This document shows positions 22,091-23,550 of a DNA stretch of 40,673 nt, in pieces. Positions within the stretch are counted from its first letter, which is position 1, and the number at the start of each line of letters is the position of its first letter. Location of the stretch: the sequence record PQ179042. One strand, given 5' to 3'. The notes beneath the pieces are model-generated. The model had not been told where the DNA came from, ran no database searches, and was given only the letters and a program-made list of their open reading frames with translations. The DNA is from Escherichia phage KM02. Both the position numbers and the translations under genes were made by a program.

Positions 22091-22113
22091 ACTAAACTAT
22101 CACTATAGGGAGA
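22091..22113 (+). promoter_or_regulatory. Phage-RNAP promoter (phi10 analogue; full CACTATAGGGAGA)
   Basis: ctaaactatcactatagggaga at 22092-22113. Confidence 0.8.
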
Positions 22114-22215: not shown

Positions 22216-23259
22216 ATGGCAAACGTTCCGGGTCAGAAAGTAGGTACAGACCAAGGCAAAGGCAAATCTGGTTCCGACGCTCTGGCGTTGTTCCTGAAGG
22301 TATTTGCTGGTGAAGTCCTGACTGCATTCACTCGCCGCTCTGTAACTGCTGACAAGCATATTGTCCGTACCATTCAGAACGGTAAGTCTGCTCAGTTCCC
22401 GGTCATGGGTCGCGCATCTGGTGTGTATCTGGCTCCGGGTGAGCGACTGTCCGATAAGCGTAAAGGTATCAAACATACAGAGAAAAATATTACCATTGAT
22501 GGTCTGCTGACTGCCGATGTGATGATTTTCGACATTGAAGATGCGATGAACCACTATGACGTGGCTGGCGAGTATTCCAACCAGTTGGGTGAAGCTCTGG
22601 CTATCGCTGCTGATGGTGCGGTGCTGGCTGAAATGGCGATCCTGTGTAACCTCCCGGCTGCATCCAACGAGAACATCGCGGGTCTAGGCACTGCGTCCGT
22701 ACTGGAAGTTGGTAAGAAAGCTGACCTCAACACCCCGGCTAAACTGGGCGGAGCAATCATTGGTCAACTGACCATCGCTCGTGCGAAGCTGACCTCCAAC
22801 TACGTTCCTGCTGGCGACCGTTATTTCTATACAACGCCGGACAACTACTCTGCAATCCTCGCGGCTCTGATGCCGAACGCTGCTAACTATGCTGCGCTGA
22901 TTGATCCAGAGACTGGTAACATCCGTAACGTGATGGGCTTCGTTGTTGTTGAAGTTCCGCATCTGGTACAGGGTGGCGCTGGTGATGCCCGTGGTGCCGA
23001 TGGTATCTCTATCGCTTCCGGCCAGAAACACGCATTCCCAGCAACTGCTACTGGCGACGTTAAAGTTGCTATGGATAACGTTGTAGGTTTGTTCTCTCAC
23101 CGTTCTGCTGTGGGTACTGTGAAGCTGCGTGACTTGGCGCTGGAACGTGACCGTGACGTCGATGCTCAGGGTGACCTGATTGTCGGTAAATACGCTATGG
23201 GTCACGGTGGTCTGCGTCCTGAAGCTGCTGGCGCACTGGTTTTCAGCCCAGCGGCGTAA
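22216..23259 (+). CDS. 10A: Major capsid protein (10A)
   Basis: 347 aa; long identical stretches to T7 gp10A (LALFLKVF.GEVLTAF, NYAALIDPE, RNVMGF.VVEVPHL, HRSAVGTVKLRDLALER, KYAMGHGGLRPEAAGA). Confidence 0.97.
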   Translation: MANVPGQKVGTDQGKGKSGSDALALFLKVFAGEVLTAFTRRSVTADKHIVRTIQNGKSAQFPVMGRASGVYLAPGERLSDKRKGIKHTEKNITIDGLLTADVMIFDIEDAMNHYDVAGEYSNQLGEALAIAADGAVLAEMAILCNLPAASNENIAGLGTASVLEVGKKADLNTPAKLGGAIIGQLTIARAKLTSNYVPAGDRYFYTTPDNYSAILAALMPNAANYAALIDPETGNIRNVMGFVVVEVPHLVQGGAGDARGADGISIASGQKHAFPATATGDVKVAMDNVVGLFSHRSAVGTVKLRDLALERDRDVDAQGDLIVGKYAMGHGGLRPEAAGALVFSPAA

Positions 23260-23390
23260 GCACCTTTAGCCAACCTAACGTCGCTACAGTAGCGGCTGCA
23301 CCTGAAGAGGAGACTCTAACTCCTCAACAGAAAGCTGCGCGTACTCGTGCTGCGAACAGGGCCGCTAAACTGGCTGAGTCCAACAACTAA
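22216..23390 (+). CDS. 10B: Minor capsid protein 10B by -1 frameshift at G_GTT_TTC (23238-23244)
   Basis: The same heptamer as the T7 gene 10 frameshift site sits 13 nt before the 10A stop; the -1 frame is open to 23390 and encodes ...EETLTPQQKAARTRAANRAAK, similar to the T7 10B tail. Confidence 0.55.
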
Positions 23391-23393
23391 TTG

Positions 23394-23434
23394 AAACCCC
23401 TTGGGTGCCTTCGGGTGCCTGAGGGGTTTTTTTG
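23394..23434 (+). terminator. Tphi-like terminator for phage RNAP
   Basis: About 16-bp stem with a ttcg tetraloop (23410-23413) followed by T7; resembles T7 Tphi. Confidence 0.75.
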
Positions 23435-23550
23435 CTTAAAGTGAGGATGATTATGTTTTACTTACTTACAGCCTTGGGACTATTTGTTAGTTTCTGGGCG
23501 ATTATATTATTAACCGGACCATGCAGTCCTTACGACAGATAGGAGGGAGT

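Follow-up and report, generated by a model that had tools for sequence, protein, structure and literature searches.

A probable T7-type −1 frameshift site at the end of capsid gene 10 in Escherichia phage KM02

Escherichia phage KM02 (PQ179042), whose 40,673-nt sequence is the window analyzed in this study, very probably carries a working T7-type 10A/10B programmed −1 ribosomal frameshift site in its capsid gene 10. Judging from the locus and its counterparts in related phages, we put the probability of this reading at roughly 90%. The genome is K1F-like and belongs to the genus Kayfunavirus within the T7 family. A 1.4-kb stretch around gene 10 shows 94 to 96% identity to many coliphages of the Autographiviridae (Studiervirinae, Kayfunavirus), for example, BUCT788, phiYIO1-1, vB_EcoP_F, and ST31, and the gene order at the locus corresponds to genes 9-10-11 of T7, with a scaffolding protein, a capsid protein of 347 amino acids, a terminator, and the tail tubular protein gp11. 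The following features were identified:

22091..22113, + strand: phage-RNA-polymerase promoter (phi10 equivalent), source of the gene 10 mRNA, ACTAAACTATCACTATAGGGAGA
22216..23259, + strand: gene 10A, major capsid protein and zero-frame product of 347 aa, taken from the list of open reading frames (ORFs), with the stop codon TAA at 23257-23259
23223..23256, + strand: shift window of 34 nt, the sole stretch giving −1 entry to the tail frame, delimited by flanking stops
23238..23244, + strand: slippery heptamer G_GTT_TTC, consisting of the third base of the Leu341 codon and the codons for Val342 and Phe343, read directly
23244..23390, + strand: predicted 10B-specific extension in the −1 frame, 48 codons followed by TAA at 23388-23390, obtained by translation
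23393..23433, + strand: Tphi-type intrinsic terminator with a 17-pair hairpin and a run of seven T, found in a terminator scan

The promoter ACTAAACTATCACTATAGGGAGA agrees at 22 of 23 positions with the K1F promoter consensus (A/C)CTAAACTATCACTATAGGRAAA, which was taken from the annotation of the homologous site in phage ASO2B. The 10A protein shows 92 to 98% identity to other Kayfunavirus capsid proteins and matches the Pfam family Gp10A-like (PF21703) with an E value of 7.6e-103 over residues 60 to 342. Residue 342 is thus the end of the capsid domain, and the slip site is located exactly at this boundary.

The slippery heptamer and access to the −1 frame

Direct reading of the locus upheld the phasing G_GTT_TTC given in the first-pass annotation, with the zero-frame codons 341 to 343 read as CTG-GTT-TTC. 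The distance of 13 nt to the 10A stop given there also agrees if it is counted from the last base of the heptamer to the first base of the stop codon; 12 bases (23245-23256), i.e., four codons, lie in between. As a TGA at 23220-23222 closes the −1 frame on the upstream side and the 10A stop follows downstream, a productive shift is confined to positions 23223 to 23256, where no slippery motif other than the heptamer occurs. Over the 40,673 bases of the genome, GGTTTTC occurs once on both strands, against 3.96 copies expected, and this sole copy aligns with the shift site of T7 gene 10 in homologous codons. A search for a Shine-Dalgarno-like stimulator of the dnaX type 10 to 14 nt upstream of the heptamer gave nothing convincing, just GCUGG.

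According to the proposed mechanism, most ribosomes would read CUG GUU UUC AGC CCA GCG GCG UAA and release the 347-aa 10A protein (calculated mass, 36.0 kDa). A minority would slip back by one base while GUU occupies the P site and UUC the A site; tRNA-Phe would re-pair fully (UUC to UUU) and tRNA-Val partially (GUU to GGU). Shifted ribosomes would then read CAG CCC AGC and onwards, 48 further codons in all, and terminate at the TAA of 23388-23390, immediately ahead of the Tphi hairpin. The product would be a minor capsid protein, 10B, that is the same as 10A through Phe343 and continues with a 48-residue tail. The open frame of 48 codons, the predicted length of about 391 aa, and the end of the frame just before the Tphi hairpin had all been put forward in the first-pass annotation and were reproduced here: the frame runs from C23244 to this TAA, the predicted product has 343 + 48 = 391 aa (40.7 kDa), and the hairpin starts at 23393, 2 nt past the TAA. 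Slippage itself and its efficiency in KM02 are what we infer by analogy with T7, for which a frameshift efficiency, or share of 10B, of about 10% has been published (PMC1635266). Similarly, co-assembly of 10B with 10A and exposure of the tail on the exterior of the head are established for T7 and would be expected for KM02.

The tail could also be reached if the phage RNA polymerase dropped one U in the T4 run. Such transcriptional slippage would yield the same junction protein (...LVFQPSGV...) and is therefore indistinguishable from ribosomal slippage in sequence data. However, the homopolymer run at the site comprises only four T (23240-23243), whereas for a polymerase to slip productively, about 6 to 9 or more identical bases in a row are required. 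The G_G preceding the T-run is conserved as well, which fits tandem tRNA re-pairing better than a homopolymer effect, and the identical site of T7 gene 10 is classed under ribosomal frameshift sites (PMC5009743). We therefore regard transcriptional slippage as highly improbable. Independent translation of the tail frame from an internal start is effectively refuted by the sequence: neither ATG, GTG, nor TTG is present in this frame between the TGA at 23220 and the TAA at 23388, and the ORF list contains no ORF of at least 30 aa in it. Without a start codon of its own, the tail frame is reachable from gene 10 only, and the preferred reading remains a ribosomal −1 shift at the heptamer.

The predicted 10B tail and its conservation

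Translation from the re-read C23244 yields QPSGVSTFSQPNVATVAAAPEEETLTPQQKAARTRAANRAAKLAESNN, which comprises 48 sense codons and is followed by TAA. The tail is rich in Ala, Glu, Arg, and Lys, and the predicted 10B protein ends with the residues LAESNN. Its junction is predicted to read ...ALVF-QPSGV... (...GALVFQPSGVSTF... / ...ALVFQPSGVSTF...), and in silico digestion with trypsin gives a junction peptide of 48 residues, YAMGHGGLRPEAAGALVFQPSGVSTFSQPNVATVAAAPEEETLTPQQK (4,912 Da), next to very short tail peptides. In a BLASTP comparison with the tail of T7 10B, an E value of 2e-11 with 64% identity over 36 residues was obtained, in support of the T7 10B-like character proposed in the first-pass annotation, and both tails have the motif EETLTPxQxAARTRAAN in common. 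A Pfam search with the KM02 tail gave no match. A tblastn search of the phage collection with the 48-aa tail also returned no matches, for which low-complexity filtering of a short Ala-rich query is probably responsible. A DNA search with the tail region hit 1,051 records, 229 of them with a coverage of the tail and terminator of 80% or more.

The frameshift had also been called conserved, and this description holds for the relatives analyzed. In a sample of 69 distinct 3′ ends of gene 10 collected from IMG/VR and GenBank, a −1 extension of at least 40 codons is present in 33 of 35 distinct relatives with a T-run (defined as NGTTTTY) versus 16 of 34 without (Fisher P = 1.3e-5, uncorrected for phylogeny). 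Among the ends without a T-run, 18 of 34 have short −1 frames only, and 10 of the 16 long ones contain a T3-type in-frame A_AAG. The heptamer is unchanged in all 14 aligned relatives with a T7-type tail and also in Kayfunavirus loci with other tails. Within the Kayfunavirus clade (>92% identity), synonymous changes occur in the neighboring codons for Pro, Ala, and Gly but never in CTG GTT TTC.

As a separate observation, three 3′ ends (L038, L042, and L054) have −1 ORFs of 221 to 228 codons with neither a T-run nor A_AAG; here, the frame of gene 11 is probably open upstream.

These data also bear on the simplest alternative, namely that no recoding occurs at all. The −1 frame would then be a relic or a chance opening, and the heptamer would merely encode Val-Phe. 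Taken alone, the length of the open frame is not significant and lies within chance (P of about 0.1 to 0.135), as 13.5% of shuffles had a frame open for at least 48 codons and the value of (61/64)^48 is 0.10. In the densely packed KM02 genome, the −1 frame stays open for at least as many codons beyond the stop of 14 of 35 long ORFs on the + strand. In addition, more distant relatives without the extension keep the Val-Phe dipeptide, and single-base indels cut the tail or access to it in two relatives, L009 from IMG/VR (15 codons) and Yepe2 (39 codons); these indels stem from faulty sequencing or else hint that 10B can be dispensed with. In T7, 10B is dispensable; for K1F, its authors suspected that this may not hold. 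The codons used for the dipeptide, however, argue against this alternative: almost without exception, relatives with an extension encode Val by GTT, and those without one do so by GTC, GTA, or GTG. In a few relatives lacking the −1 extension, the Phe codon is TTT.

Further evidence against the absence of recoding comes from the tail itself, which is homologous to a proven segment of a T7 protein. The 17 core codons of the tail were compared among nine distinct sequences, which come from Kayfunavirus, Berlinvirus (FE44, Yepe2, and PC127), and T7; pN/pS amounts to 0.16 for the tail frame and to 3.0 and 1.8 for the two others. Variable columns are distributed 4/4/15 over codon positions 1/2/3 of the tail core, with 15 of 23 at the third position. 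This substitution pattern indicates that purifying selection acts specifically on the −1 tail frame. Furthermore, g10b of phage K1F was described as arising by a −1 frameshift “adding 44 triplets,” and GFP fused to the end of g10b, i.e., to the same tail frame, was expressed and gave stable fluorescent phage (PMC6277420). Taken with the codon usage at the site, these points make a nonrecoded, fortuitous frame very unlikely and favor programmed frameshifting in KM02.

The terminator and candidate stimulatory structures

The KM02 terminator is homologous to Tphi of T7 and conserved in 14 of 14 aligned relatives; the spacer between the 10A stop and Tphi measures 130 nt. Inside the terminator, CCCC is found at 23397-23400, at a distance of 153 nt from the shift site. 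In T7, gene 10 frameshifting reportedly depends on the CCCC of the terminator, more than 200 nt downstream, in a manner that is unexplained (PMC5009743). Closer to the heptamer, one further structure was predicted:

23250..23285, + strand: candidate local 3′ hairpin of 8 pairs, AGCGGCGU / ACGUCGCU, predicted at a 5-nt spacer after the heptamer

The candidate hairpin has a folding energy of −10.8 kcal/mol with a z score of −1.0 relative to shuffles. Its K1F version contains one mismatch and has a z score of +0.55, and an arm reads GGCG in KM02 but GGAG in K1F. The changes observed in the hairpin are one-sided (G.U to A-U and C-G to U.G), compensatory pairs are absent, and an alternative hairpin (23280-23285 with 23290-23295) competes with the stem. 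The stem at 23250-23285 is thus a weak candidate for a local stimulatory hairpin or pseudoknot: it is no better than shuffles, and one pair is broken in K1F. In relatives of the Berlinvirus type, a strong hairpin with two tiers lies 6 nt past the site (z scores of −4.6 and −3.9), so that the local structure is lineage specific.

A consensus fold of 14 sequences paired the heptamer with GAAAGCT at 23330-23336 and showed no covariation; because both partners are invariant, this pairing is uninformative. The Rfam scan gave no matching family, and sub-threshold hits to NsiR1 and SpF22, which are terminator-containing sRNAs, were taken as chance hairpin matches. Of the candidate 3′ stimulatory elements in KM02, the terminator CCCC is present and the local hairpin is weak.

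Comparison with known systems and exchange of tails

A programmed −1 ribosomal frameshift in gene 10A/10B of T7 was reportedly described by Condron, Atkins, and Gesteland in 1991; the details used here are those of the Atkins 2016 review and of Slootweg 2006. The T7 shift site is G_GUU_UUC (PMC5009743; PMC1635266) and is listed as a variant of the X_XXY_YYZ motif with G_GU as X_XX (Atkins et al. review, PMC5009743). KM02 and T7 have identical heptamers in homologous Val-Phe codons and homologous tails, which in both phages end just before a homologous Tphi with CCCC inside. Differences concern the number of codons from the site to the 10A stop (four in KM02 and three in T7), the length of the tail (48 codons in KM02 and 56 in T7, with the first ~20 residues not alignable), and the spacing between the shift site and the CCCC of the terminator (153 nt in KM02 compared with the >200 nt reported for T7). 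Moreover, KM02 lacks the G-rich stretch, CUGGGGGUGGCC, found after the site in T7.

K1F, which belongs to the same genus, shares with KM02 the heptamer, the 48-codon length, and the terminator, and the two tails are identical at 47 of 48 positions. At the frameshift locus, the phages differ by point substitutions only, e.g., Ala in KM02 versus Asp in K1F at tail residue 41; beyond it, a 31-codon mini-ORF between Tphi and gene 11 is extra in KM02 and missing from K1F. The RefSeq record of the Kayfunavirus EcoDS1 states that the product “may be translated via slippery sequence” and contains a misc_feature “region of similarity to gp10B.” Joined 10B coding sequences are annotated in the records of T7 and FE44. 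Most other Kayfunavirus GenBank records annotate 10A alone or name 10A “minor capsid protein.” The missing 10B in these records is a gap of automatic gene calling and annotation and no biological difference. A literature search for a frameshift-made minor capsid protein under the genus name Kayfunavirus found none.

In Kluyvera phage Kvp1, tandem mass spectrometry (MS/MS) of 10B showed a −1 shift at TTTTCA (PMC2579914). Both Kvp1 and KM02 have a U-run slip site followed by A, which reads GGTTTTCA in KM02, but Kvp1 belongs to another genus and is closer to T3; the comparison with it covered the slip site. In T3-type phages, capsid frameshifting leads to an Ig-like C-terminal extension (PMC5009743). 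As would be the case in KM02, a −1 frameshift in the last capsid codons yields a C-terminally extended minor capsid protein there. T3-like relatives in our sample (e.g., L045, L049, and L065) carry the in-frame lysine-codon site A_AAG in place of the U-run. A T3-type site in KM02 was rejected, as neither AAG nor A_AAG occurs in 23223-23256 and the tail shows no Ig-like domain or Pfam match.

According to the published view, the T3 extension is Ig-like and the T7 extension is not, and such extensions move by recombination. Among sibling Kayfunaviruses with capsids more than 92% identical, the same heptamer is followed either by the T7-type basic tail or by an alternative tail of 91 to 94 aa, which has a domain-like look and, in the one example scanned, no Pfam match. 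A relative with 78% capsid identity (L028) has a tail of 87 aa that includes a Big_2 Ig-like domain, and in two others with 73% capsid identity (L059 and L044), the tail is 475 aa long and has a Big_2 domain at its start. In the DNA search, phages with alternative tails yielded two separate matching pieces, the end of 10A and Tphi, which suggests exchange of a tail cassette between these two conserved borders. The Kayfunavirus pattern fits the published view of T3 and T7 and extends it slightly, in that both kinds of tail are found on the T7-type site within one genus; we consider this a modest addition.

More speculatively, GGTTTTC and Tphi might be the fixed borders of an exchangeable display cassette, with stimulation of the shift independent of the adjacent downstream sequence, an idea that we consider rather doubtful at present. 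If it were true, stimulation might need the heptamer and the distal terminator alone, and the long-range effect of the T7 CCCC could become testable by natural variation.

A frameshift site of the kind proposed for KM02 is already known in the genus through K1F and EcoDS1, and recoding biology gains nothing new from it, apart from a modest insight from the comparison: in Kayfunavirus, several unrelated tails share a single slip site. For KM02 itself, the annotation can be corrected to 10B = join(22216..23244,23244..23390). The C terminus of 10B is a natural point for display or tagging, as used by T7Select in T7 and g10b::gfp in K1F, and knowing its exact end therefore helps the engineering of therapeutic K1F-like phages.

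Slip sites and RNA structure in gene 10 loci

In the consensus fold of 14 aligned phages, the slip site GGUUUUC (23238-23244 in the window) is paired in 14/14 with GAAAGCU (23330-23336), which forms the Gln-Lys-Ala codons of the 10B tail. The pairing at this position is made through G.U pairs in T7, and covariation between the two segments was absent across the 14 aligned phages. Analysis of the Berlinvirus-like gene 10 loci L011 and L034 (both at 2530-2590 of the respective locus) revealed a strong two-tier hairpin that starts 6 nt 3' of the slip site, with folding energies of -25.3 and -21.2 kcal/mol and z-scores of -4.6 and -3.9, respectively. Its pairing is kept despite base changes between the two loci. 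This hairpin is a much better candidate for a frameshift stimulator than any found in the window's own clade.

Furthermore, we inspected the last five codons of gene 10 in relatives lacking the T-run of the T7-type slip site. An in-frame A_AAG is present two codons 5' of the gene 10 stop in L045, L049, L053, L058, L065, L032, L041, L050, L051, and L062, where the -1 ORF comprises 87 to 178 codons. This motif is the T3-type alternative slip site and, in contrast to the T7-type site, sits a few codons further 3'.

Tail-frame indels and annotation of relatives

Single-base indels affect the tail frame in two relatives. In L009, an IMG/VR contig of 39,300 bp (2522-2560 of the locus), an indel at the 10A stop converts TAAG to TAG, leaving just 15 codons in the -1 frame and shifting the tail to the +1 frame, while in Yepe2 (L085) one added A at ~1340 (AACAAAGG) cuts the tail at 39 codons. 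These indels are either sequencing errors or natural losses of 10B.

In Salmonella phage PRF-SP2 (L001) and about 20 sibling GenBank records, the 347-amino-acid zero-frame capsid CDS is named "minor capsid protein 10B," and the true 10B extension carries no annotation. This label is an annotation error propagated through the submission series.

Mini-ORF between Tphi and gene 11

A mini-ORF lies downstream of the Tphi terminator and ahead of gene 11, the ATG of which is at 23550:

23447..23542, + strand: mini-ORF of 31 codons, hydrophobic (MIMFYLLTALGLFVSFWAIILLTGPCSPYDR), with GAGGA directly 5'

An identical peptide is encoded by L003 (BUCT788), L009, and L012, and that of L011 shows 80% identity. 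K1F lacks this insertion. Possibly, the mini-ORF lies on a mobile insertion and encodes a small membrane protein.

Different tails behind one slip site

GGTTTTC is common to L010, L012, L014-L023, L028, L070, L074, and L075 (from ~2522 onward), but the -1 tails differ. A different tail also follows the slip site variant GGTTTTT in L059 (963 onward) and L044 (1247 onward). Alternative tails of sibling kayfunaviruses are 91 to 94 amino acids long, and a Pfam scan of one example gave no match. The 87-amino-acid tail of L028 has a Big_2 Ig-like domain, and the 475-amino-acid tail of L059 and L044 harbors Big_2 at its start. The tails look like an exchangeable C-terminal cassette, with the slip site and Tphi as fixed borders.
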